A stretch of DNA of 64,000 nt from a virus. The translations under genes and the position numbers were made by a program. How positions within the stretch are numbered: position 1 is the stretch's first letter; every line of letters begins with the position of its first letter. The notes under the pieces are model-generated. The model did not search any database and was not told where the DNA came from. It saw only the letters and a list, made by a program, of their open reading frames with translations. Positions 7,628 through 45,301 of this stretch are shown piece after piece. Location of the stretch: the IMG/VR virus record IMGVR_UViG_3300021090_000015, positions 1,782-65,781 of that record; one strand, 5' to 3'.

Positions 7628-8476
7628 TCAGACATGCGGCGCAGGATTTTCACCCAACAAATGATCGACAATCAGGTACTTTCTGACCTGTTCAAGCCGG
7701 AGTGTGCGGGTGTAGCGCTTGATCATGTCGGAGGATTTCCAACGTCCCATTTCCATCAGGCTGCGCTCGGATGCCCCATTCAGGACACCCATGACTGCCA
7801 TGGATCGGCGCAGATCGTGGACGGATAGCGTGATGCCGATCCTCCAACCCCATTCGCGAACAATCGAATACAAGCCCTCGGGAGTCAGTCCCTGGCCGGT
7901 CCTGATGTGTGTGAACAGGAAGCCCTGCCCATCGGCGATCCTGCGGAAGGACATCCAACGTGCGATGTGAGCGGCGGTTTGTTCGCCGAAGATGGCAGCC
8001 TCCCACTGGCCGCCCTTGACGATGACTTGCAGGATACGACGCTCCAGATCCGTGTCGGCTTGTTGCAGCCTACAGATTTCCGATTCACGCAGTCCGGTAT
8101 CGAGGGCGAGTGAACAGATGGCGAGGTCGCGGGCGCCCTTGGGATCATAGGGGTCGAAGGATGCCAATAGTTTGAGAGCGATTTCGGGGGAGAGCGAACG
8201 CTGCGGTTTTCCCTGAATGCGTTTGATTTTGGCGGTGAGCGCCGGATGAGAGCGTCCATATTTCCAGGCAAGATATTTTTGTGTGGCTGCCAGTGCGAGA
8301 CACTGGCGCGCATTCCCCCACCCGCTTTGATCCAATATTTTCAATAATTCCGGAGCCGTCATGTTGACCAGATCCTGGCTCCTGGTCAACACGCGGCTCA
8401 GGATGTCCTGATACGTCCGCCTGGTAGAGGCGGCATAAGGGAAGGATGCAAGGAAGTTCGATAGATCGATTTTCAT
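7628..8476 (-). CDS. int: Phage tyrosine integrase
   Basis: TGLRESE, VKGG, HDLRR, MGRW, RYT catalytic residues; adjacent to att. Confidence 0.9.
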   Translation of the reverse strand: MKIDLSNFLASFPYAASTRRTYQDILSRVLTRSQDLVNMTAPELLKILDQSGWGNARQCLALAATQKYLAWKYGRSHPALTAKIKRIQGKPQRSLSPEIALKLLASFDPYDPKGARDLAICSLALDTGLRESEICRLQQADTDLERRILQVIVKGGQWEAAIFGEQTAAHIARWMSFRRIADGQGFLFTHIRTGQGLTPEGLYSIVREWGWRIGITLSVHDLRRSMAVMGVLNGASERSLMEMGRWKSSDMIKRYTRTLRLEQVRKYLIVDHLLGENPAPHV

Positions 8477-12712: not shown

Positions 12713-13205
12713 AACCAGCTTCCGGCTGCGCGTGAGCCGATTTTTTCAGGGTCACGAAAATCCGCCAGTGGTAAGACGTTTTACCACCCCAAGGAACGAT
12801 GCGATGTGTAAATTCAATCCCACGCTACCCGAATTCCGAAAATGGTCTTATTTGCCCACAGGAAGCCCCATGCTGATTATGTCCAAACTCATCCATGAAC
12901 CGAAAGACTTACATTCCAACGCACCGCGGCGGCTGGTGGCTGCCTGGCGCAGGGTGGGATGCAGTGATCGAAAGCTCGCAACTCTGCTCAAAGTGAACCA
13001 TTCTTATGTGTCTCAGTTGTTATGGCGCGGGATCGAGCCGGGGAATCCGGAGATCCGCGTGAAGTTATTTCTTCCGAGGAAGAAGCGCGTGCCGCGTGAG
13101 CCGAAGGTGGAGGAGTTCCCAGGGCAAAAGCGGATCGTCAAGATCATCCGATCGATGCACAGGGAAACGACGCGCACTTTCAAACGATGGAAGAGCGGAG
13201 GTTGA
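12705..13205 (+). CDS. XRE/Cro-like HTH protein (start may be 12870 or 12879)
   Basis: SDRKLATLLKVNHSYVSQLL; stop lies 1 nt before the intI start. Confidence 0.55.
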   Translation: MVRTSFRLRVSRFFQGHENPPVVRRFTTPRNDAMCKFNPTLPEFRKWSYLPTGSPMLIMSKLIHEPKDLHSNAPRRLVAAWRRVGCSDRKLATLLKVNHSYVSQLLWRGIEPGNPEIRVKLFLPRKKRVPREPKVEEFPGQKRIVKIIRSMHRETTRTFKRWKSGG

Positions 13206-13206
13206 T

Positions 13207-14196
13207 GTGGCTGAAAAGAAATTACTCGAGCAAATGGCTGAGAAGATTCGCGTGAAGCATTACAGTCTGAAAACAGAGACTGCTTATGTGGAATGGGCGC
13301 GCCGATATATTTTTTTCCATGGGAAGAGACATCCACGTGAGATGGGGAAAGGTGAGATCGAAGCGTATCTGAACCATCTGGCGAATGTGGGGCGGGTGAG
13401 CGCATCCACGCAAAACCAATGTTTGTATGCTTTGTTGTTTTTATACCGGGAGGTGCTGGGGATCGAGATTGCGAAAGTTGAATCCATCCGTGCGAAGGAA
13501 GGAAAGCATTTGCCGACCGTGTTGAATTATGACGACACTGCCCGCGTGTTGAACTGTGTGGACGGTGAGGTTTTCAATCTCATGGCACGATTGCTGTATG
13601 GCGCTGGAATGCGATTGAGCGAATGTCAGCAATTGCGGATCAAGGATATTGATTTTGGGATGGGAACCATCATGGTGCGCGGAGGCAAGGGGAATAAGGA
13701 CCGCACAGTTCCATTGCCAAAGACTCTGGTCAAGGCATTGATGGATCAGATGAATATTGCCCGAAGTTTTTGGAACATCGATAGACAACGCGGGATGCCC
13801 GGTGTTTTCGTGCCAAATGCACTGGACGTGAAATATCCGAATATCGGATGTGATTGGGGTTGGTTCTGGGTGTTCCCGGCACAGAATTATAGTGTCGATC
13901 CTGTAAGAAAGATTCGGCGCAGGCATCATCAGCATGAGAGCGAGTTGCAGCGTGCAATTCGCTCTGCGGCAATCAAAGCAGGAGTTGCTCAACGCGTATC
14001 CCCGCATACCTTTCGTCATTGCTTTGCAACTCATCTACTCTGGAAAGGATACGACATCCGTACTGTGCAGGATTTGATGGGGCATAATAGCATCAAGACC
14101 ACGATGGTATATTTGCATCTTCTCCACCCAGGGGGATGGAAGGGTGTGGAAAGTCCGCTGGATAATATGCCAGTGGAGAATGTTATCCATCAATAG
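13207..14196 (+). CDS. intI: Integron integrase
   Basis: N-terminal HYS..TE.AY..W.RRYI.FH..RHP...STQNQ...ALLFLY; YGAGMRLSE, GGKG.KDR, HTFRH, LMGH, TMVY; IntI-specific insertion PNAL..KYP...W.W.WVFP...RRHH; GTG start with GGAGG RBS. Confidence 0.93.
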   Translation: MAEKKLLEQMAEKIRVKHYSLKTETAYVEWARRYIFFHGKRHPREMGKGEIEAYLNHLANVGRVSASTQNQCLYALLFLYREVLGIEIAKVESIRAKEGKHLPTVLNYDDTARVLNCVDGEVFNLMARLLYGAGMRLSECQQLRIKDIDFGMGTIMVRGGKGNKDRTVPLPKTLVKALMDQMNIARSFWNIDRQRGMPGVFVPNALDVKYPNIGCDWGWFWVFPAQNYSVDPVRKIRRRHHQHESELQRAIRSAAIKAGVAQRVSPHTFRHCFATHLLWKGYDIRTVQDLMGHNSIKTTMVYLHLLHPGGWKGVESPLDNMPVENVIHQ

Positions 14197-14216: not shown

Positions 14217-14313
14217 GGACGCTGCGCTCCCCCAAAGTGCGGGGGGCTTGGTCCGACGAATGGGCGAGCGTGAAACGTTGTAGTTCGGCTCTTTGATAGA
14301 AAAGGAGATTAGC

Positions 14314-14571
14314 ATGACAGACGATGAGAAAAAACAGTATGAACTTGCAAGACTAGGTATTGCAAGATTGATGGGTGATGCCAGCGAAGTTGATAAATGG
14401 GCAGAGAAAGTGAGCCAGACCCGCGCCGCCGAACTACAACGTGCAGCCGTCCAATCCGAGCAGAAATGCCCTTTCTGCGATGGTGATGGATACTGGCAAG
14501 AAGCGAATCAAACGTTTTGGTGCGATATGTGCAACGGGACGGGCATTTCTAAACGCTCGGATGGCGGCTGA
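14314..14571 (+). CDS. Cassette 1 ORF with C-terminal CxxCxGxG zinc ribbon
   Basis: AAGGAG RBS; CPFCDGDG...CDMCNGTG lies within attC1. Confidence 0.7.
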   Translation: MTDDEKKQYELARLGIARLMGDASEVDKWAEKVSQTRAAELQRAAVQSEQKCPFCDGDGYWQEANQTFWCDMCNGTGISKRSDGG

Positions 14572-14587
14572 CGCTCGCCCATTCTAC
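14428..14587 (+). repeat. attC1
   Basis: R'' GCCGAAC; arms CAGCCGTCC..ATCCGAGC / GCTCGGAT.GGCGGCTG; R' ATTCTAC. Confidence 0.75.
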
Positions 14588-14607
14588 GACTCTTGAAAGG
14601 AAAGGTT

Positions 14608-14841
14608 ATGAGCAAAGATGAATGGTATGAAAAACTTCGAGAATGGGCGCGCGAAGATGCACGGCTTGGCAAGTTGCCCTTTGCGCTGATGACACCATTG
14701 GCTGAACACCTTGCAAATTATGAAGCCGTAGAACAAAGCGTGCACTTGACGGGGCTTCGCCGTTGTCCCGCCTGCAAAGCCTTGCTCGAAGAAACGAGCG
14801 TCTATTGTGATAACTGCGGGACTGATACGCCCCGCAAGTAA
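14608..14841 (+). CDS. Cassette 2 ORF with C-terminal zinc ribbon
   Basis: CPAC-10-CDNC inside attC2. Confidence 0.7.
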   Translation: MSKDEWYEKLREWAREDARLGKLPFALMTPLAEHLANYEAVEQSVHLTGLRRCPACKALLEETSVYCDNCGTDTPRK

Positions 14842-14856
14842 CGCAAGCCGTTAGCC
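14728..14856 (+). repeat. attC2
   Basis: GTAGAAC-AAAGCGTGCACTTGACGGGGC ... GCCCCGCAAGTAACGCAAGCC-GTTAGCC. Confidence 0.85.
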
Positions 14857-14876
14857 CGCTCTTGAAAGGAAAATTT

Positions 14877-15170
14877 ATGACGAACGAAGAAGCATACAAT
14901 AAATTACTTGCCGAGCGTCCAGTGATTGTTTCGGTAATGTTGCGGGACAAACATCGTTATCACTACCCGGAGAGTTTAGCAGATGCAATCGCCGCATCCA
15001 GCGATCCGCCTGAGTTGGTGTCCCTCATTTTGCAGAGTGCAAAGCATATCTATCAGGGCGGGCTAACAAAGCGTGTAGCGGACTTGTGCGAAAAATGTGG
15101 CTCACCGTGGGAATCGTGGGACGAAATTGCCGCCCCTGATGTTTGCTCTATATGCGGCACAAGCCGCTAA
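14877..15170 (+). CDS. Cassette 3 ORF with C-terminal zinc ribbon
   Basis: CEKC-15-CSIC inside attC3. Confidence 0.7.
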   Translation: MTNEEAYNKLLAERPVIVSVMLRDKHRYHYPESLADAIAASSDPPELVSLILQSAKHIYQGGLTKRVADLCEKCGSPWESWDEIAAPDVCSICGTSR

Positions 15171-15185
15171 CGCGCCCCGTTGGGC
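15061..15185 (+). repeat. attC3
   Basis: GGCTAAC-AAAGCGTGTAGCGGACTTGTGC ... GCACAAGCCGCTAACGCGCCCC-GTTGGGC. Confidence 0.88.
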
Positions 15186-15233: not shown

Positions 15234-15584
15234 ATGAGTGATCCACTTGCTGTCTTGCTTACGTGGTCATTTCCTGTGCGCGAAAAGGTTGCCAAAGCGC
15301 TTGAGCCTTTTTGTTATTTTACGGGTTTGCCACAATCAAAAACTCCCTCTGGCGAATTGAGATTTTATAACGCGATAGATAATTCTGATTTGCGAGATAA
15401 AGTTTTCAAGCTCGCTTATGCTACTCAATATGAGTTGGGTTTGCGTAAAGATCATCGTTTGCCAGAGTCGCAAGCAGAGAGTCTTGCAAATGATATTGCC
15501 GCCCAACACCGCTTTCACCAGACGGCAGGCGGGCGCGGCTCTAAAAAATCAAAATTGGTTGTGCCTGCCGCTGGTAAAGCATAA
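15234..15584 (+). CDS. Cassette 4 hypothetical protein
   Basis: GGAGG RBS; reads through attC4. Confidence 0.6.
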   Translation: MSDPLAVLLTWSFPVREKVAKALEPFCYFTGLPQSKTPSGELRFYNAIDNSDLRDKVFKLAYATQYELGLRKDHRLPESQAESLANDIAAQHRFHQTAGGRGSKKSKLVVPAAGKA

Positions 15585-15593
15585 CCATTCGGC
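15501..15593 (+). repeat. attC4
   Basis: GCCCAAC-ACCGCTTTCACCAGACGGCAGGC ... GCCTGCCGCTGGTAAAGCATAACC-ATTCGGC. Confidence 0.8.
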
Positions 15594-15605: not shown

Positions 15606-16412
15606 ATGATCACTCGTCCGATAATGCGCTACCCCGGTGGAAAATACTCTCTGGCAAAATGGGTGATATCCCATTTCCCGGCCCATGAAACCTATGTTGA
15701 ATTATACGGTGGGGCTGCCAGTGTGCTCATGCGCAAGCCGCGTTCAATCGGAGAAGTCTATAACGACTTGAACGGAGATGTGGTGAATGTGTTCCGGGTG
15801 CTGCGCAATCACGAGCAGGCTGCCCAGCTAGCGATGATGTTGGCATTGACGCCATACGCCAACGAAGAATACCGTCTGGCATATGAGCCATGTGACGATC
15901 CAATTGAGCGGGCCCGCCGGATGATATTCCGCTCATTTGCTGGCCACGGATCAGATAGCGTCACCAGGTCACATGCTGGCTTTCGTGGCCATCGAAACAA
16001 AGAGAGTGGCGTAACCGCTGCCCAGGAATGGGCGAGTTTCCCCCGAGAAATAGCAGTATTCACCGCACGTCTGCAGGGTGTTTGCATCGAGCAACGGGAA
16101 GCAATAAAGCTCGTTCCTGTTTTTGATCGCCCTGACACTCTCTATTATGCTGATCCGCCCTATCTCATATCAACCAGGTCAAGCTCCAGCGTCAAATATA
16201 GTTGCGAGATGACCGACGCAGATCATGAACAGCTGGCAGACGTACTCCATCAAGTCAAAGGTATGGTCATTGTAAGCGGCTATCCATCCGAATTGTATGA
16301 TCGTCTTTACGTTGGCTGGCGTTGCATCCCACACGCCCACCGAGCGCAGAACGCCAAGCCCTCAACGGAGTGCCTTTGGTTATCTCCGAATTTTCAAACG
16401 ACATTGTTCTGA
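15606..16412 (+). CDS. Cassette 5: Dam-like (D12 class) N6-adenine DNA methyltransferase
   Basis: MRYPGGK, YVELYGGAASV, EVYND, YADPPY motifs. Confidence 0.88.
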   Translation: MITRPIMRYPGGKYSLAKWVISHFPAHETYVELYGGAASVLMRKPRSIGEVYNDLNGDVVNVFRVLRNHEQAAQLAMMLALTPYANEEYRLAYEPCDDPIERARRMIFRSFAGHGSDSVTRSHAGFRGHRNKESGVTAAQEWASFPREIAVFTARLQGVCIEQREAIKLVPVFDRPDTLYYADPPYLISTRSSSSVKYSCEMTDADHEQLADVLHQVKGMVIVSGYPSELYDRLYVGWRCIPHAHRAQNAKPSTECLWLSPNFQTTLF

Positions 16413-16413
16413 T

Positions 16414-16468
16414 GTCGAACACAGCACGAAGCGGACGAAGTACACGCCGCTTGTGCAAATCGTTGGAA
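16414..16468 (+). repeat. attC5 (short)
   Basis: GTCGAAC-ACAGCACGAAGCGG ... CCGCTTGTGCAAATC-GTTGGAA. Confidence 0.8.
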
Positions 16469-16479
16469 GGACTCTTGCA

Positions 16480-16647
16480 ATGAATGAAAATACTTTTGAT
16501 GGAATTACTTTTCACTCAGATAGTGAGCTAATAAACTTCTTGAAGCAATCGTATTATGCTCACAAATCCACTATTCGCGTTTTGGAAGTTGACCGCGATA
16601 AATATCGGTCCTTCCAACAAAGCGTGCACCCGACAAGGGGTACATGA
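16480..16647 (+). CDS. Cassette 6 hypothetical protein
   Basis: AT-rich 55-aa ORF ending within the left arm of attC6. Confidence 0.5.
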   Translation: MNENTFDGITFHSDSELINFLKQSYYAHKSTIRVLEVDRDKYRSFQQSVHPTRGT

Positions 16648-16760
16648 CACATGTTTTGATAGACGGTGACGAAGAGCGCACCTGTTGGTATTGCTATGAC
16701 TTTGAACCGTAGGGGCATTCTAAGCAGCCCCCGATCTGCTTATCGCGCGCCCCGTTGGGC
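16612..16760 (+). repeat. attC6 (degenerate right arm)
   Basis: TTCCAAC-AAAGCGTGCACCCGAC ... CGCGCGCCCC-GTTGGGC; inner arms pair poorly. Confidence 0.55.
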
Positions 16761-17028: not shown

Positions 17029-17154
17029 GCCCAACACCGCTCGCACCTGACCGCCTTTGGCGTGGGTGGGCTGTGGCAATTCCCCTACTTGATCCATTTA
17101 GGCAGAAGTGCCTTCCGCTATACACGGCGGTCAGGTAAAGCAAAACCGTTGGGC
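17029..17154 (+). repeat. attC7
   Basis: GCCCAAC-ACCGCTCGCACCTGACCGCC ... GGCGGTCAGGTAAAGCAAAACC-GTTGGGC. Confidence 0.88.
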
Positions 17155-17177: not shown

Positions 17178-17534
17178 ATGGCAAAAGATTACGAAATAAC
17201 AAAATTAGAAATCGCAAAACTCGACATGAAACCAGGTGACACAATCGCTATAAAAATTCTTGGTTCAAGACCATCCGATAGCGAACTCGCACATATTCAT
17301 CGAGTGATAGAGCAAGCCTTGCCAAACGTAAAGGCAATTATTTATAACGAAAATGATATTGAATTGTCAATTGTAAGCAATCAAAAAACAGTCAATCAAA
17401 TTCGTGCCGAGCATGGCTACTCACCACTTCAAAGCGGTAACGTGTATTCCAAAGCGCGCCCAACAAAGCGTGCACTGGACGCGGCTATCGCCTTGAAAAA
17501 TTGGCTGGTTCGGCTATTCACGCCGCGCCAGTAA
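17178..17534 (+). CDS. Cassette 8 hypothetical protein
   Basis: AAGGAG RBS; reads through attC8. Confidence 0.65.
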   Translation: MAKDYEITKLEIAKLDMKPGDTIAIKILGSRPSDSELAHIHRVIEQALPNVKAIIYNENDIELSIVSNQKTVNQIRAEHGYSPLQSGNVYSKARPTKRALDAAIALKNWLVRLFTPRQ

Positions 17535-17549
17535 CGCAAGCCGTTCGGC
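17458..17549 (+). repeat. attC8
   Basis: GCCCAAC-AAAGCGTGCACTGGACGCGGC ... GCCGCGCCAGTAACGCAAGCC-GTTCGGC. Confidence 0.88.
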
Positions 17550-17648
17550 GACGCTGCGCTCCCCCAAAGTGCGGGGGGCTTGGTCGCCGAACGGGGCGCG
17601 GGATGGAATCCCGTTGTCCGGCTCTTTTCGAGTAAATAGGAGTACCTC

Positions 17649-17954
17649 ATGGAATTGACTAATGAGCAAATCAAATCGCTGGCAATGTTCGCTTTAGAAA
17701 TCTTGGATGATTTCCCTGACATCGGAAATTTGGACGGTGGAGATTTGCAAGATATAGCCGAAAGGCACAAAATTCTTGTCCCGCAAATCGTCTACGCTCC
17801 GTGCCATTATGATGGCTGCGCTTGTGCCGAAATGTGTACAGATGATGAATTCACAGCGGGCGTGACTTGCTATCACATTGTTGACTGGCTAGACCGCGTC
17901 GCCGAACAACGGGATGCAATTGCATTGTCCGGGCTCCTTGAATGCGAACCGTAA
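17649..17954 (+). CDS. Cassette 9 Cys-rich hypothetical protein
   Basis: AGGAG RBS; GCCGAAC half-site at 17901. Confidence 0.55.
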   Translation: MELTNEQIKSLAMFALEILDDFPDIGNLDGGDLQDIAERHKILVPQIVYAPCHYDGCACAEMCTDDEFTAGVTCYHIVDWLDRVAEQRDAIALSGLLECEP

Positions 17955-18065
17955 ATGTCACAATGACCGTTCCCGAAGCACCAGCGCAGAAGCGAAAACG
18001 TACTGCAACGTTTTCGCCGCGGCAAAATGGTTTACGGAAAATTGCCCCAAGAGCGATAGGAACAA

Positions 18066-18302
18066 ATGGCGCGAGCAACTTATCGCGCATTGCACGATTG
18101 GCTCAAGGCTCAGTTTGTCGCCGTTGAATTTGGCTTGCTCACTTTTGAAGATGTATTCTTGTCTCATTTCGAATGGGTATTGCCAAATGGATCTGTGCAG
18201 ACTATCAGGCAATTAGTCAAGCCTCGCATTGAAACACGCGGCGAATTTATGCTTGAGGGCGGCGCGTCCAGTGTTGAGGGTGAAGTTGTTGACGAAAACT
18301 AA
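18066..18302 (+). pseudogene. C-terminal part of a conserved-type phage protein; in-frame TAG just upstream
   Basis: RALHDWLKAQ..AVE.GL.TFEDVFL.H..LP.G motif; the frame continues upstream past a TAG 9 nt before the ATG. Confidence 0.4.
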
Positions 18303-18406
18303 CTTGCCGTTGACTGTTTGCTCCGCGTTCCGGGATCGCCCAGCGACGCTGCGCTTCTGTTTTCTGATGTAACAAAAGAGTCTTCAGTGCGTCACGCCTC
18401 AATACT

Positions 18407-19882: not shown

Positions 19883-20344
19883 ATGCCAACACGAGCCGTT
19901 GCAGCGAAAACGATGAAGATCGGCAAGAAGGGCGGAGGAAAACATTGGACCCGAAAAGAGAAACAAGCGCGTGATCAAGCTGCGAAAGATTTCGAGCGCA
20001 ACGATGATGCGAAGATCAAGGCCCCGGTGTGGATTAGTAAAGAGGGATTGAAGATCTGGGATAAGAAACTTGCTGAGATCAAAGGACTCAACGCAAGCAC
20101 TGAATTATTGGACGCGCTCGATAGTGAGATACTCGCTTTGTTCTGTGATGCGGTGGCACATTACAAGAAGATCGCTTTGAAGAATCGATTGAAAATCGAT
20201 GATCACAAACTCATGCAGACGTACATGCTGCGCATCCAGGGATATTCGGAGCGGCTGGGATTTACGCCAGGTGCACGCGCCCGCCTGGTAAAGAAGCGCG
20301 CAGAGGGACCGGAAAAAGATGAGTTCGGGGAGAAGTTTGATTGA
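19883..20344 (+). CDS. terS: Terminase small subunit
   Basis: P.W....W; LGFTP.AR.RL; position before terL. Confidence 0.8.
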   Translation: MPTRAVAAKTMKIGKKGGGKHWTRKEKQARDQAAKDFERNDDAKIKAPVWISKEGLKIWDKKLAEIKGLNASTELLDALDSEILALFCDAVAHYKKIALKNRLKIDDHKLMQTYMLRIQGYSERLGFTPGARARLVKKRAEGPEKDEFGEKFD

Positions 20345-22254
20345 CGCACCCAGCTACACAATACGCGCTCGATGCAGTTGAAGGCAGGATCGTTGTTGGC
20401 CGGTGGGAGAGGCTGACGTGTCTCCGCCATTTGTATGACCTCGCTCGAGCTGGGCAGCTTCCAGGGATACTGGCGAAGCGCGTTGAGAAGGCGACGACTC
20501 GTCCATTGCCGCCGCGCGATCCGGAGTGGCCATGGATCTTCGATGAAGAGCAGGCGAGTTTTGTCGCCATCGAATGGTTCTCGCACCTGGTGCACGTGGA
20601 GGGCGAGCTTGCAGGGCAGCCGATTGAATTAATTCCGGCGCATATGTTCGAGGTCTCGTGCATCTTCGGATGGGTTTCAAAGACCGAGACGATCACACGC
20701 AGCAATGGCAGGGTGGTGGGACTGCGCAGATTCAATACGGTGTTCGATACCGAAGCGCGCAAGAATTCAAAAACAACGCGCGGCTCGGGCGTTGGCTTGT
20801 ATATGCTGGTTGGAGATATGGAGGCTGCACCCGCGGTTTATTGCACGGCAGTGGACCGCTCCCAGGCACGAGTGCTCTATAATTATTCAAAGACAATGGG
20901 GGAAAAGAGCAGGGACATCCGCAGACGATTACGCATTGGCAAGTATGAGATGAATCATCGCGCGCGCGGCGGTGAGATGAAAGCCTTTTCGGGCGAGGTC
21001 AAGAATAAGGATTCATTCAACCCGAGCTGTGCGTTCATCGATGAATACCATGCACATTCCACGAGCAAACTCTTTGACCTGATGTCCACGGCGCAGGGAC
21101 AGCGCGCCCAGCCATTGATCTATACGATCACGACCGCGGGCGATGACGTGGAGAGTTCCTGTTATCAGGAATATCAATATTGCAAATTGATCGTCGAAGG
21201 GTCGGTGAGTCTCAATCCCGATGCAACAAAAAACGAGCGTTACTTCGTGATCATTCGCGAGATGGATGATGGCGATGACGAGCATGATCCCAGGAATTGG
21301 ATCAAGTCAAATCCTTTACGGGCATCGACACCCAAGGGATTGGAGAGATTGAAGCAGCAGCATGATACGGCATTCGGCTCGCAGATCCCGGAGAAGATTC
21401 GCGCGTTCCGAGTGAAGAACCTGAATAAATGGGTGCATGGAAACGAAGCCAGCTATATGGGCGATTACATGGTGGGGGATGGGGTGAAGCCGTCGAAGTG
21501 GGACCAGCTGGCGGTGTCGCGTGAAGCGTTCCTGGAATTGACGCGCGGTCTGTTATGCGTGGTGGGTGTGGACCTGTCGAAGAAGATCGATCTCACCGCG
21601 CTGGCTTATGTCTTCGCGCTGCGGGATGGACGCGTCGCCATCTCTGCACATGGATTCATGCCTGAAGCGGGAGTCAAGCGTCATGAGCAGACGGATAAAA
21701 TCCCGTATCGACACTGGGCGAAAGGTGGATGGTTGACCATCACGGAAGGGGACGTGGTCGATTATGAATCCCTGCAATCGCAGATCGAAGCCATCAACGG
21801 GAAACTATATGCGACCGAGGAAGAACACGAATTGGCAAAGGTGAGACTGCTCGCGATCCATTACGCCGCGCTGAATGGGTGGCAGGTGCACGAGATCTGT
21901 TATGACCCATACAATGCCACACAATTCAAAAACGAGATGGATAAAAAGGGATTCACCACCATTGAGGTACGGCAGACCATGCCAAACTTGAATGAGCCAA
22001 CGAAGACATTTCGCGAGCTGGTGGCCAGCGGCAAACTGGTGCACGATGGATCGCCATTGCTGACCTGGTGCGTGGGGAATGCGCAGGAGATCGTGGACAC
22101 CAAGGAGAACATTATGATCTCGAAAAAGAAGTCGAAGGACACACGCCGCGTGGACCTGCTGGCGGCGGGGATCGATGGTTTGTTCCGGATCGAGCCGCTG
22201 CGCGAGGCAACGAGTTATTCGGATTATGTGAACTCGGATGATTTTGGACTGTAG
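20341..22254 (+). CDS. terL: Terminase large subunit
   Basis: ARKNSKT Walker A, FIDEYH Walker B, GVDLS...D, RVDLLAA nuclease. Confidence 0.93.
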   Translation: MTHPATQYALDAVEGRIVVGRWERLTCLRHLYDLARAGQLPGILAKRVEKATTRPLPPRDPEWPWIFDEEQASFVAIEWFSHLVHVEGELAGQPIELIPAHMFEVSCIFGWVSKTETITRSNGRVVGLRRFNTVFDTEARKNSKTTRGSGVGLYMLVGDMEAAPAVYCTAVDRSQARVLYNYSKTMGEKSRDIRRRLRIGKYEMNHRARGGEMKAFSGEVKNKDSFNPSCAFIDEYHAHSTSKLFDLMSTAQGQRAQPLIYTITTAGDDVESSCYQEYQYCKLIVEGSVSLNPDATKNERYFVIIREMDDGDDEHDPRNWIKSNPLRASTPKGLERLKQQHDTAFGSQIPEKIRAFRVKNLNKWVHGNEASYMGDYMVGDGVKPSKWDQLAVSREAFLELTRGLLCVVGVDLSKKIDLTALAYVFALRDGRVAISAHGFMPEAGVKRHEQTDKIPYRHWAKGGWLTITEGDVVDYESLQSQIEAINGKLYATEEEHELAKVRLLAIHYAALNGWQVHEICYDPYNATQFKNEMDKKGFTTIEVRQTMPNLNEPTKTFRELVASGKLVHDGSPLLTWCVGNAQEIVDTKENIMISKKKSKDTRRVDLLAAGIDGLFRIEPLREATSYSDYVNSDDFGL

Positions 22255-23691: not shown

Positions 23692-23843
23692 ATAAATATC
23701 TTGACGATATTTTTTACTGGCTGGGTGCACTGTTGGTCAGTGCTGGTGCATATCTAATCTACCCGGCTTTTGCATTGATCGTATTTGGTTTTTATTGTTC
23801 CCTTTTCAGCTATCTGATCGGAAAGGCGAAGGCAAATCAATGA
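23688..23843 (+). CDS. Small pre-portal membrane protein
   Basis: 51 aa, two TM segments; homolog 62847..63002. Confidence 0.7.
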   Translation: MNKYLDDIFYWLGALLVSAGAYLIYPAFALIVFGFYCSLFSYLIGKAKANQ

Positions 23844-25084
23844 TCGTCACCGGTGCATTGACTTCTCCAAAGGCGGTGCCGCCTGCGAAGACGGAATCAG
23901 TTCCAGATCAGGGCGGGAGTCTGTATGCGGGTCGCAGCCAGACGCGCGCAAAGCAGATGATCAGCCCGGAGTTGGCGAAGCGCGTGGCGACGTATTTCCG
24001 CTGTTTGAACACGATCACCGACGATATCGCCAACATGCCGCTGCAACAATTCCAGCGCGTGAAACTCAACAACGGTCTGCGGTTGACACAGCAGATCGAT
24101 CCTAACCCGAACCTGCGCAACATTTCCTATCTAATCGAGGTCAAGCCTAACCGGTGGATGAATCCATTCATCCTCAAGAAAACATCAATCATGTGGCTAC
24201 TCTCGTGGGGCAATGCGTTGATCTGGCAGCCGCCTCCACCGGCGCCGCGCGAACTATTCATCCTGCCTGCGAATGTGACCATGCCAAAATTCGATCCCGA
24301 TGGGAACCTATGGTACGAGGTGCGTTTTCCGAACGGAGAAAAACGCTACATCCCGGAGGTCGAGGTGGTGCACGTGATGATCAACTCGACGAATGGCATC
24401 TGGGGTAGATCTGTTTTGGAATATGCGCGTGAGACCGTTGGACTGCGGATGGGGATGTCTGCGACGCAGAGCAGCGTGCAAGGGCAGGGATTGAACCCGG
24501 CGGCGTACGTCCAGGTGAATGCCATACTCGATAAACAGGGACGGGACAATTATCGTGAGGCCTACAGCGATGGCATCAGCGGCGCAGAGAATGCCGGCAA
24601 TCTGATCGTCTTTGACAACAAGGTCACGAAATTCGAACCGATCACGATGCAATTCCGGGATGCACAGTTCCTGGAAAGTTTGCAAAGCACAGATATGGAG
24701 ATCGCAAACTTTTTCAAATTTCCTGCCTACAAACTGAATTCAGGAAAGCAATCCTACCAGAGCAATGAACAGCAGGACCTGGATTATCTAAAATCCTGTC
24801 TTGATCCGCACCTGGTGCAGTGGGAGCAGGCGGCGCGTCTGCAATGGCTGAGTGAGGCGGAGCAGCAGAGTAATTATTTCAAATTCATTCGGGAGTCCAT
24901 CCTGCGCACGAATGCCAAGAGCCGTGCGGAGCTGCATGAGATCCAGATCCGCTCCGGGACAATGCAACCAAATGAATCGCGTGAGATTGAAGACCGCGAT
25001 GGATATAAGGAAGGCGGCAAGTTCTACATGACCAAGAATTATGGTCCAGTCGGTAGCGAGCCGAAACCTGCACAAGGAGAATGA
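23840..25084 (+). CDS. Portal protein (HK97 family)
   Basis: V..C.N.I..DIA.MPL, LL.WGNA, G.S.LEYARE.VG, DAQFLE, SN.EQQ, NE.R..E. Confidence 0.92.
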   Translation: MIVTGALTSPKAVPPAKTESVPDQGGSLYAGRSQTRAKQMISPELAKRVATYFRCLNTITDDIANMPLQQFQRVKLNNGLRLTQQIDPNPNLRNISYLIEVKPNRWMNPFILKKTSIMWLLSWGNALIWQPPPPAPRELFILPANVTMPKFDPDGNLWYEVRFPNGEKRYIPEVEVVHVMINSTNGIWGRSVLEYARETVGLRMGMSATQSSVQGQGLNPAAYVQVNAILDKQGRDNYREAYSDGISGAENAGNLIVFDNKVTKFEPITMQFRDAQFLESLQSTDMEIANFFKFPAYKLNSGKQSYQSNEQQDLDYLKSCLDPHLVQWEQAARLQWLSEAEQQSNYFKFIRESILRTNAKSRAELHEIQIRSGTMQPNESREIEDRDGYKEGGKFYMTKNYGPVGSEPKPAQGE

Positions 25085-43002: not shown

Positions 43003-43434
43003 CTATGACGTTACTGGTGGTGGCGCGACCGGTGCAGGCTGCGCTTCTGGATCTGGAGTTTTTCGGATCGATCCAATTAATGCCAGGAATGTTCCCAGCG
43101 GGCTCAAGCAACTTAAACCAATGCCAAGCGATGTGCGTACGCTATCTGATTCAACTGCCAGTCCCATAATAGAAAGTCCTTTGAGAGCCAGGACAAGACC
43201 ACACCCCAGGGCGACAATGGCACCAAAGCCCGAGAAGGTCTTTCCGGGTTGTTCTTTCGCCAGGAGCGCGATCAACAGCAGAATGAAACCTCCTGCACCA
43301 GTGAGAATGCCATCTGTTTCAAAACCGTAGATGCTGCGGGATAATCCGAAGATTCCACTAACAGTTGCCCAGGGAGTGGCTGCACCGATCAAAATTAAAA
43401 TACTGCCGATCAATACGAGAGTCTTTGCTTTCAT
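43003..43434 (-). CDS. Membrane protein (accessory slot)
   Basis: About 4 TM segments; same AGAAAGGGTG RBS as the unit A BRCT gene. Confidence 0.65.
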   Translation of the reverse strand: MKAKTLVLIGSILILIGAATPWATVSGIFGLSRSIYGFETDGILTGAGGFILLLIALLAKEQPGKTFSGFGAIVALGCGLVLALKGLSIMGLAVESDSVRTSLGIGLSCLSPLGTFLALIGSIRKTPDPEAQPAPVAPPPVTS

Positions 43435-43525
43435 GGGTTCACCCTTTCTGTAACCTTTCAACGGTTTGAATATCTTGTATTTTGCCTCTTGACAGCAGTG
43501 CGGTAAGTTTGGTAAGATATGGCGC

Positions 43526-43723
43526 ATGAACAAAAACGATCTCATGACAGTTCCAGAATTTGCGGCAGCGATGGATGTGGACCGCAATACCGTCACCGAA
43601 TGGGTGAGACTTGGTAAAGTAAAAGGTTTCAAGAAGGATCCTTTCCAGGCCAAGACTTCACCTATATACATTCCACGCAGCGAGCTTGAGCGCGTCAAGA
43701 AGCTCATGAAAGAGAATGAGTAG
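43526..43723 (+). CDS. Excisionase-like HTH protein
   Basis: Homolog of 7180..7392; leaderless promoter 43489-43518. Confidence 0.8.
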   Translation: MNKNDLMTVPEFAAAMDVDRNTVTEWVRLGKVKGFKKDPFQAKTSPIYIPRSELERVKKLMKENE

Positions 43724-43728
43724 ATCGA

Positions 43729-44259
43729 ATGACTAAGGAAATTCCACTTACCCACGGCAAGATAGCATTGGTCGATGACGCTGATTACGAGTGGCTGCGT
43801 CAATGGAGGTGGAGTGCGTGGTCGCATAAACGTAATTGGTATGCTATACGTTATCAAGGCAAACCGCGTAAGAATATTTTTATGCATGTCGAAATCATAA
43901 AACCATCTGAATGTATGGTAATTGACCATCGGGATCGCAATGGTCTTAACAACCAAAGGTACAACTTGCGAGAATGTACGAATGTTCAAAATTTCAGAAA
44001 CAGAAGAAGGCAAATTAACAACACATCTGGCTACATTGGCGTGGACAAAAACCGTGGCAGGTGGCGTGCAAGAGTAGATTTCTATGGTAAAAAAATCCAC
44101 GTTTATTATGGATATGATTTAGAAGCCGCTGCTCGAGCATATGATGCAAAGGCATTTGAATTGTTTGGTGAATTTGCGAGTCTAAATTTTCCAAATCGTC
44201 TTGATTCTGGTTACTTAAAAAAGAGCGCCCGCTCTGATCAGCGGGCGCCCGGTCAGTGA
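43729..44259 (+). CDS. HNH-AP2 homing-type endonuclease
   Basis: IDHRDRNGLNNQR.NLR..T..QN..N; NTSGY.GV..RWRA..EAAARAYD..A..LFGEFA.LNF. Confidence 0.88.
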   Translation: MTKEIPLTHGKIALVDDADYEWLRQWRWSAWSHKRNWYAIRYQGKPRKNIFMHVEIIKPSECMVIDHRDRNGLNNQRYNLRECTNVQNFRNRRRQINNTSGYIGVDKNRGRWRARVDFYGKKIHVYYGYDLEAAARAYDAKAFELFGEFASLNFPNRLDSGYLKKSARSDQRAPGQ

Positions 44260-44434: not shown

Positions 44435-45301
44435 TTATATCTTCTCTTGGTCATCCGTAGGGTGGAATTTTTCGAGGAAGTTATCCACGACCAGAAGACC
44501 CCGAAGCTGTTCCAGTTTGAGATTGCGAGTGTAGCGTTTGATCATGGCGGGAGATTTCCAACGATACAACTCCATCATGGCTCGTTCGGATAGATTATTC
44601 AGGACGCCCATGACAGCGGTCGAGCGGCGTAGATCGTGAAAGCAAAGTGTGATGCCGATTTTGCGACCCCATTCACGGGCGATGGAATAGAGTCCTTCGG
44701 GCGTGAGCCCTTCCCCGGTTTGAACATGCGTAAATAAATAACCCTGACCATCGGCGATCTTGCGAAAGGACATCCAGCGATCAATACGCATGGCGGTCTG
44801 TTCGCCAAAGATGGCGGCTTCCCATTGACCACCCTTCACAACGACTTGCAGTTTGCGGTGCTCCAGATCTGTGTCAGCCTGTTCCAGGCGGCAGACCTCG
44901 GACTCACGCAAGCCGGTGTCGAAGACGAGCGAGCAGATCGCCAGGTCGCGAGCGCCTTTCGCTGAATAGGGGTCGAAGGATGCCAGTAGTTTGAGAGCCA
45001 TCTCGGGGTCAAGTGAGCGCTGCGGTTTTCCAATCACCCGTTTTATCTTTGCATTGCGCGCTGGATGTTTTTGCCCATAGGTCCATACCATATATCTTTT
45101 GATGGCAGCCAGGGCAAGGCACTGACGCGCGTTCCCCCACCCGCTTTGTTCCAATAATCGAATTAACTCCGCGGCTGTCAGGCTGGCGGGGTCCTGCACT
45201 TGATCGAGGATGCGATGTATCACATCCCGATAGGTGCGTTTAGACGTGCTGGCATAGGTATATGCCGACGAAAGAAATTCTTCGAGGTCGTTGGTATTCA
45301 T
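44435..45301 (-). CDS. int: Phage tyrosine integrase
   Basis: TGLRESE, VKGG, HDLRR, RW, RYT; homolog of 7628..8476. Confidence 0.9.
   Translation of the reverse strand: MNTNDLEEFLSSAYTYASTSKRTYRDVIHRILDQVQDPASLTAAELIRLLEQSGWGNARQCLALAAIKRYMVWTYGQKHPARNAKIKRVIGKPQRSLDPEMALKLLASFDPYSAKGARDLAICSLVFDTGLRESEVCRLEQADTDLEHRKLQVVVKGGQWEAAIFGEQTAMRIDRWMSFRKIADGQGYLFTHVQTGEGLTPEGLYSIAREWGRKIGITLCFHDLRRSTAVMGVLNNLSERAMMELYRWKSPAMIKRYTRNLKLEQLRGLLVVDNFLEKFHPTDDQEKI

Follow-up and report, generated by a model that had tools for sequence, protein, structure and literature searches.

Probable coding attC sites in a phage integron lineage of Anaerolineae: recombination-site loops read as C-terminal mini-domains of cassette proteins

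Introduction

The attC sites of integron cassettes are usually treated as non-coding structural DNA, and integron annotation tools place genes between the sites. Here we describe a phage-borne integron in which site and gene overlap. It lies in a 64,000-nucleotide stretch, hereafter the window, which is part of a 67.7 kb IMG/VR virus record (IMGVR_UViG_3300021090_000015). In the reading that we consider probable, its attC sites are genuine recombination sites that lie within the 3′-terminal part of cassette genes, the loop of the site encodes a C-terminal mini-domain of the cassette protein, and the whole belongs to a phage integron lineage of Anaerolineae (Chloroflexota).

The closest described counterparts are the canonical attC sites (59-base elements, such as that of aadA7 and the Vibrio cholerae repeats), which the sites studied here resemble in their R″/R′ AAC...GTT boxes, imperfect L″/L′ stem, bottom-strand bulges, variable-length loop, position at the cassette 3′ end and neighbouring integron integrase (IntI). 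They differ in where the gene ends: open reading frames (ORFs) of control integrons end before R″ or at an R″ TAA (33/39 sites), whereas here 52 of 62 read on and the TAA of L′ is the usual stop. In further contrast, the loop encodes a predicted folded module and intI is co-oriented with the cassettes.

Palindromic DNA that is also translated is known from Rickettsia, whose palindromic elements sit in frame in protein genes, and shufflon or invertase sites are found inside pilV or tail-fibre genes, where shufflon sites lie in code and exchange C-terminal segments. To our knowledge these systems use other recombinases and other site architectures, and we know of none with a single-stranded folded attC or with integron cassettes.

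A recombination box that gives its stop codon to a translated frame crossing the site is found at attI1, where, according to passages of a 2022 review, ORF-11/ORF-18 ends at a stop that the first cassette provides with its core site (PMC8876359). Those frames are short leader peptides that aid translation, whereas here whole cassette proteins would end in attC and gain a domain. Phage genomes with integrons and attC clusters have been reported (Qi et al. 2023, PMC9892861); those are attC arrays, as is the one studied here, and occur with or without intI in temperate and virulent phages, and the passages of that paper returned by a term search include none on ORFs through attC or on loop-encoded domains. 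Three complete integrons described in those passages look bacterial and captured, in contrast to the integron studied here, which is a stable part of a phage lineage. Chloroflexi integrons have also been reported (Cury et al. 2016, PMC4889954), and the passages that term searches returned from that paper and from the 2022 review hold nothing on coding loops. A wider literature search, in which subscription journals were not covered, found no paper on cassette proteins translated through attC or on loop-encoded domains.

Results and discussion

Cassette genes run into their attC sites

Reading of the sequence and a search for conserved boxes revealed eight attC sites of canonical anatomy downstream of intI and on the same strand. 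The integron comprises the following elements, with lengths in nucleotides (nt) and, for each attC site, the methods that found it.

13096..14196, plus strand: intI, integron integrase; TIGR02249 at 404.9 bits against a cut-off of 265, residues 43-358
14275..14289, plus strand: attI-side core, a 15-nt perfect inverted repeat with 14428-14442 (R″ of attC1)
14428..14587, plus strand: attC1, 160 nt; R″ GCCGAAC, R′ ATTCTAC; stop TGA in L′; fold and hairpin scanner
14728..14856, plus strand: attC2, 129 nt; R″ GTAGAAC, R′ GTTAGCC; stop TAA 14839 in L′; fold and scanner
15061..15185, plus strand: attC3, 125 nt; R″ GGCTAAC, R′ GTTGGGC; stop TAA 15168 in L′; covariance model and fold
15501..15593, plus strand: attC4, 93 nt; R′ ATTCGGC; fold, covariance model and scanner
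16414..16468, plus strand: attC5, 55 nt, short loop; covariance model and scanner
16612..16760, plus strand: attC6, 149 nt; box search and fold, with a matching start of cassette 7
17029..17154, plus strand: attC7, 126 nt; fold, covariance model and scanner
17458..17549, plus strand: attC8, 92 nt; fold, covariance model and scanner

All sites share one plan: an R″ box ending in AAC, a spacer of about 5 nt, the L″ arm, the loop, the L′ arm, a second spacer and the R′ core. The L′ arm ends in GTAAC or GTAAA (TGAC in attC1), the AAC of R″ is present in 8/8 window sites, and the R′ core is GTTxxxx in six, with ATTxxxx in attC1 and attC4. Folded with DNA energy parameters, the bottom strands form long imperfect hairpins with two bulges on the R″/L″ side, five pairs apart, and the extrahelical bases always lie on the left (top-strand) arm. 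The translation of intI shows the R, H-x-x-R, H and Y motifs. Cassette 1 starts with GTTCGGC (14283-14289). Beyond GTT, R″ pairs with the start of its own cassette at 46 of 56 bases, compared with 29 of 56 for the adjacent R′, and at 7/7 bases for cassettes 3 and 6; this complementarity is the presumed footprint of circular cassettes.

The eight cassette ORFs, with lengths in amino acids (aa), end as follows.

14314..14571, plus strand: ORF1, 85 aa; residues from about 39 onward inside attC1; stop TGA 14569 in L′
14608..14841, plus strand: ORF2, 77 aa; CPAC-10-CDNC, Cys codons 14764-14817; stop TAA 14839 in L′
14877..15170, plus strand: ORF3, 97 aa; CEKC-15-CSIC, Cys codons 15087-15155; stop TAA 15168 in L′
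15234..15584, plus strand: ORF4, 116 aa from ATG; Lys-rich tail in attC4; stop TAA 15582 in the right spacer
15606..16412, plus strand: ORF5, Dam-type N6-adenine methyltransferase (PF02086, TIGR00571); ends just before R″
16480..16647, plus strand: ORF6, 55 aa; ends early in the attC6 loop
16790..17026, plus strand: ORF7, 78 aa; stop 2 nt before R″
17178..17534, plus strand: ORF8, 118 aa; through attC8 to the L′ TAA 17532; no cysteines

An earlier note on this DNA had claimed that ORFs 1-3 run through R″ and the left arm of attC and that each loop encodes a 4-Cys zinc ribbon. When coordinates and reading frames were checked, all three ORFs were seen to cross these elements, and the loop code reads CPFC-14-CDMC, CPAC-10-CDNC and CEKC-15-CSIC, with Cys spacings of 14, 10 and 15. 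In ORF1 the cysteines (codons 14467-14532) form two DnaJ-type CxxCxGxG motifs. The note placed the stops of ORFs 1-3 and ORF8 in the L′ box, where TGA 14569, TAA 14839, TAA 15168 and TAA 17532 are indeed found, those of ORFs 1-3 lying 15-16 nt before the end of R′, and it was equally right to place the stop of ORF4 (TAA 15582) in the right spacer. It had also stated that the ORFs enter the sites in different frames, and they do: the arm AACAAAGCGTG, common to ORF2 and ORF3, is read ..EQSVH.. in one and ..LTKRV.. in the other.

Read-through is the rule in the lineage

To see where genes end in relation to attC, we took the longest cassette ORF at 62 lineage sites, made up of the eight window sites and 54 covariance-model matches in related loci. 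The stop lies in the L′ box at 37/62 sites, in the loop at 13/62, in the L″ arm at 1/62 and beyond the site at 1/62; it falls in R″ or its spacer at 5/62 and before R″ at 4/62, and 1/62 has no ORF. The same procedure was applied to 39 attC candidates from integrons with distant integrases (40-50% identity) of Gammaproteobacteria, Bacteroidota and others, where stops lie before R″ in 26, at the R″ TAA in seven and inside the site in three, with no ORF in the remaining three. ORFs thus read into attC at 52/62 lineage sites versus 3/39 control sites (Fisher's exact test, p = 9e-15), so read-through is the rule in this lineage and an exception elsewhere. Whichever of the three frames enters the arm, the L′ TAA is the common stop.

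Among 40 attC sites in loci identified by their integrase alone, 7 carry the pattern of paired cysteines, CxxC-N6-25-CxxC. In all seven it is the ORF frame that encodes it, and the remaining five frames are free of it at every site. When the nucleotides were shuffled, a set of 40 sites contained 0.02 such patterns on average and at most 1. The note had asked, in a test set in advance, whether CxxC pairs exceed those of shuffled sequence; with seven sites against 0.02 expected they do, and the 4-Cys pattern is therefore not due to chance. With a relaxed Cys/His pattern, four ligands are found in 14 of 62 tails, a count that includes some loci found through the ribbon pattern itself.

Other loops encode hydrophobic tails resembling C-terminal anchors, or Lys-rich basic tails (L010:9435-9557, L025:11834-11955, L026:2397-2518; L009:1932-2037, L024:601-707, window 15501-15593). 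Zinc knuckles are thus one class among several loop-encoded tails. In attC6, past the ORF6 stop (16640-16712), a +1 frame peptide carries CWYC, with a lone Cys just upstream in another frame; this peptide may be a frameshifted knuckle remnant.

Loop codons and hairpin arms are constrained in two ways

If the loop is part of a gene, its codons should bear the mark of selection on protein. For the ORF2-type loop we compared 15 codons upstream of the pattern used in a DNA search (see below) in 11 distinct sequences. Pairwise differences at codon positions 1, 2 and 3 number 197, 157 and 425, and the ratio of nonsynonymous to synonymous differences per site (pN/pS) is 0.35 in the ORF frame versus 1.7-1.8 in both wrong frames. 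Cys codons vary between TGT and TGC, and one Ser switches between TCN and AGY. The loop codons of this type are hence under protein-level purifying selection, as the note had suggested should be tested. Synonymous divergence is high (pS 0.64), so the similarity of ORF2-type tails does not reflect recent DNA copying.

The arms, in turn, keep their pairing. In the two L-box helices, 97.7-97.9% of positions pair over 55 aligned sites, compared with 23-34% in slid controls, in an alignment fitted to the covariance model, which itself favours pairing. Cells in which both sides have changed number 109, compared with 39.5 in shuffles, and 0/500 shuffles reach the observed value. Together, purifying selection on the loop and compensatory change in the arms indicate that the sites are constrained two ways. 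With the shuffles described above, these results support the core of the note's proposal, a dual-coding recombination site whose loop encodes a small 4-Cys module.

We propose that the mRNA-sense (top) strand would encode a short linker in its R″ box, its L″ arm and the unpaired spacer between them, in any of three frames, that the variable loop would then be read as a C-terminal mini-domain, and that the L′ TAA (sometimes TGA or TAG) would act as stop codon. In ORFs 1-3 the mini-domain would be a 4-Cys zinc ribbon or knuckle, in ORF1 with the DnaJ-type motif twice. IntI would recognise the folded bottom strand by its R and L boxes and bulged bases and not by the loop, which would leave the loop free to evolve as code, and a zinc knuckle, needing four ligands in about 25 residues, would suit the space. 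We infer translation of the tails, zinc binding by them, continued recombination of the sites, and exchange of attC interiors through recombination at the conserved boxes.

Tails and N-termini form a mosaic

The ORF2 tail is near-invariant in about 25 metagenomic proteins; R51, C53, P54, C56, L60, E61, S64-D68, C70-D73 and P75 are the same in 24 ORF2 relatives. The expectation that homologues keep the cysteines held for 24 of 26 ORF2 relatives and for all 16 ORF1-family tails, which have at least four Cys/His in several arrangements; it failed for ORF3, whose homologue is Cys-free.

A DNA-pattern search with the back-translated last 11 codons of ORF2, which is blind to upstream sequence, gave 14 further loci; apart from one truncated copy, all distinct loci have an ATG upstream from which the ribbon frame runs without a stop. 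The ORF2-type tail with its arms follows at least 8 unrelated N-termini of 40-115 residues. Some of these proteins read the arm as ..EQSVH.., others as ..LTKRALD.., and the ribbon frame is regained through a difference of 1 nt in length. The converse is also seen. Two metagenomic genes match the window ORF2 at about 90% DNA identity over a stretch that starts at the ribosome-binding site and takes in R″ and the first L″ bases. They diverge from it completely after the start of L″ and re-converge at the end of L′, and their loops encode other four-ligand tails, CxC...CxxC and CxxH...CxxC. With one N-terminus on three attC interiors, and one tail on at least eight N-termini, the module travels with the attC and not with the gene.

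The ORF1 family has one conserved N-terminus and arms with at least five loop versions, all with at least four Cys/His, and the loop version of the window ORF1 is also found on other N-termini. In freshwater-sediment metagenome contigs, the attC2 arms enclose a loop of 34 nt compared with 71 nt in the window (14756 to 14828 replaced). In this mosaic the interior of attC acts like a part that can be swapped, and the breakpoints fall within conserved boxes. We tentatively suggest, while rating it at somewhat below even, that the interior (distal stem and loop) is an exchangeable coding module, and that recombination at R″/L″ and L′/R′ moves C-terminal mini-domains between cassette proteins. The movable mini-domains would include zinc knuckles, hydrophobic anchors and basic tails, with the L′ TAA as universal stop, and the integron would shuffle protein tails in frame in addition to genes. 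The route could be homologous recombination or template switching between arm copies, or a side reaction of IntI.

A 5′ leader, TTGAAAGGAAA, followed by ATG about 6-8 nt downstream, is common to cassettes 2 and 3 and to the homologue in phage Virus Rctr41k (window 14588-14610 and 14857-14880; L002:8548-8570). Both cassette ends are thus more conserved than the middles.

The loop-encoded module is zinc-ribbon-like

In ORFs 1-3 the module has two CxxC knuckles separated by a short spacer. As in the zinc fingers of PF13248 and PF00684, the two Cys knuckles lie 10-15 residues apart, and ORF1 has CxxCxGxG twice; unlike in those families, the domains are minimal and terminal and score under the Pfam cut-offs. 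AlphaFold2, run on ORF2 with 24 relatives in the alignment (one row from a GenBank locus was left out), predicts helices at 3-20 and 25-47 and a tail with short strands at a predicted local distance difference test score (pLDDT) of 74-80. The predicted ORF2 tail superposes on solved 4-Cys fingers: among the best 50 matches listed by Foldseek against the PDB, 39 are solved zinc fingers, ribosomal zinc-ribbon proteins or ribosome entries. The listed matches include RanBP2/NZF fingers and RadD, with root-mean-square deviations of 0.5-2.7 Å over 22-31 columns.

Searches of PHROGs, NCBIfam and Pfam assigned no function to the N-terminal regions of ORFs 1-4 and 6-8. The sole library matches are weak and at the level of zinc fingers; with the ORF1 tail, for example, a Q-like antiterminator family matched at E 9e-7.

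Base pairing between knuckle codon sets (Cys-Pro TGYCCN versus Cys-Gly) was considered as a reason for the presence of zinc ribbons in hairpin loops. Such pairing holds by inspection in three window sites and is not conserved among ORF2-type copies, so we do not claim it.

Alternative explanations

Several observations weigh against attC sites that double as gene ends with a zinc module in the loop. The profile scores lie under the gathering scores, with PF13248 on ORF2 at 24.6 bits (cut-off 27) and PF00684 on ORF1 at 23.4 bits (cut-off 32.7), and for ORF3 the zinc-finger profile match reaches E 0.04 at best; we therefore term the tails zinc-ribbon-like and do not call them members of Pfam families. 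The Foldseek E-values are all at or above 0.2, because the domain is tiny. The only ORF3 homologue (P0044) shares the N-terminus and the arm and has a short loop without cysteines, from which it follows that the zinc module is optional. Most of the surveyed sites come from our own scanner or from a model fitted to the lineage, and the ORF calls follow a longest-ORF heuristic and are not gene predictions. The ATT core of attC1 and attC4, which would produce a T-G mismatch opposite the R″ AAC in the folded bottom strand, may be inactivating. Public metagenome contigs aligned with the array showed no clean excision junction at G|TT; these contigs are short and break at the repeated arms, and their joints are ambiguous.

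The zinc ribbons might be ancestral C-termini of small phage proteins around which attC arms arose, in which case no recruitment of the loop took place. Small phage proteins often carry a zinc ribbon at the C-terminus, and the synonymous divergence of the ORF2-type tail is high, meaning that the association of tail and arm is old and its origin not directly readable. Yet an ancestral C-terminus would not be expected to occur with the same arms on at least eight unrelated N-termini, nor an N-terminus of about 90% identity to carry three attC interiors whose breakpoints fall within L″ and L′, and we regard this explanation as unlikely. Alternatively, the array could be a fossil, its hairpins relics that no longer recombine and evolve as coding sequence alone. 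The two ATT cores and the missing excision junctions would fit such decay. However, compensatory changes have kept the arms paired across the 55 sites, IntI is intact in all relatives checked, and related phages hold different cassette sets with the chain logic intact. The ATT core, moreover, recurs elsewhere in the same attC type: besides window 14581-14587 and 15587-15593 it is found at L003:10253-10259 and in L055, L056 and L058, and the 160-nt ORF1-type attC has it in three independent loci (window, L056 and L058). This recurrence suggests a tolerated, conserved variant and not random decay, and a fossil array seems to us quite improbable.

An overlap by chance or annotation artefact, in which ORFs simply run into the palindrome to the first stop and the CxxC pairs are accidental, would draw on the fact that the conserved L′ TAA ends any frame open to that point. 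Chance does not, however, account for seven 4-Cys sites against 0.02 in shuffles with none in other frames, for third-codon-position bias and a pN/pS of 0.35 in the ORF frame alone, for in-frame fusion whichever frame enters the arm, or for the stops before R″ that the same method gives in control integrons; we give this explanation next to no credence. We favour genuine attC sites that form the 3′ ends of cassette genes.

On that favoured reading, the recombination site would be part of the gene throughout a lineage, and one stretch of DNA would serve both as a single-strand fold recognised by a recombinase and as a protein domain, with the evolutionary signature of each visible. Such sites offer a natural test bed for the freedom of sequence that IntI leaves in the loop and bear on the birth of cassettes, because gene end and attC form one unit. 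Cassettes of this kind may be handled wrongly by gene callers and integron annotation software. If exchange of tails at the arms does occur, integrons would combine protein domains besides genes, on a second level. The lineage also indicates Anaerolineae phages as integron carriers, with a previously unrecognised integron in Virus Rctr41k.

The integron belongs to a phage lineage

A protein search with the integrase found eight viral contigs at 69-78% identity, and blastn matched the GenBank phage Virus Rctr41k (KX853513), from a methane-oxidising/anammox enrichment, in which the integrase gene is annotated xerD. This integrase reaches 383 bits with TIGR02249, and six attC sites in a perfect chain lie behind its gene (L002 4680-10104). 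Judged by its sequence, Rctr41k is a carrier of a complete phage integron that its GenBank record does not recognise. The closest integrases in genome contigs (70-81% identity) are all from Anaerolineales/Chloroflexi assemblies. In two Anaerolineales prophages whose downstream genes were checked, an integron is again followed by terminase and portal genes, and the integrases of both, like that of Rctr41k, pass the integron-integrase cut-off. All checked members of the integrase lineage are phage-borne, which is the observation at hand on the note's further suggestion that size-limited phage cassettes recruited the loop as coding space, a possible driver. The integrase relatives and the terminase and portal context thus point to a phage-borne integron lineage of Anaerolineae with intI and cassettes in the same orientation, which is inverted relative to class 1 integrons.

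In the related loci the hairpin scanner found chained attC arrays downstream of intI, and related phages hold different cassette sets. The 54 covariance-model matches counted above (E <= 0.01) are all on the intI strand, and the same model gave no matches at E <= 0.01 in four control integrons. The model was trained on attC2, 4, 7 and 8; an eight-site MAFFT alignment had misaligned the right arms. It recovers attC3 (E 4.9e-4) and attC5 (E 2.8e-4), neither of which was in the training set, scores attC2, a training site, at 89.5 bits, and finds nothing else at E < 0.1 in the 64-kb window beyond attC sites. It misses attC1 and the right end of attC6, which were supplied by the custom hairpin scanner; the scanner has a few false matches outside the integron. 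Requiring R″/R′ complementarity in the scanner dropped half of the sites, and this criterion was removed.

Phage context and minor observations

The integron lies between early genes and the terminase of the phage. The context genes are as follows.

7628-8476: tyrosine integrase
20341-22254: large terminase
23795-25084: portal

Past attC8 there is a weak attC-like site with R″ GCCGAAC at 17901 and no clear R′ (17901-18320), with additional L′-like boxes around 18300; these may represent a decayed continuation of the array.

Behind the first phage-like unit of the window lies a second (43003-44100 and 44435-45301, both on the minus strand), and its 365-aa minus-strand ORF has no Pfam or PHROG match at E <= 1e-5.

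An identical G+C-rich hairpin module stands at 14218-14253, by the attI-side core, and at 17550-17585, after attC8. Metagenome contig depth rises 5- to 10-fold over the bins of this hairpin (77 and 141 versus about 14), from which it follows that the community contains multiple copies of the hairpin element or of the adjoining arms.

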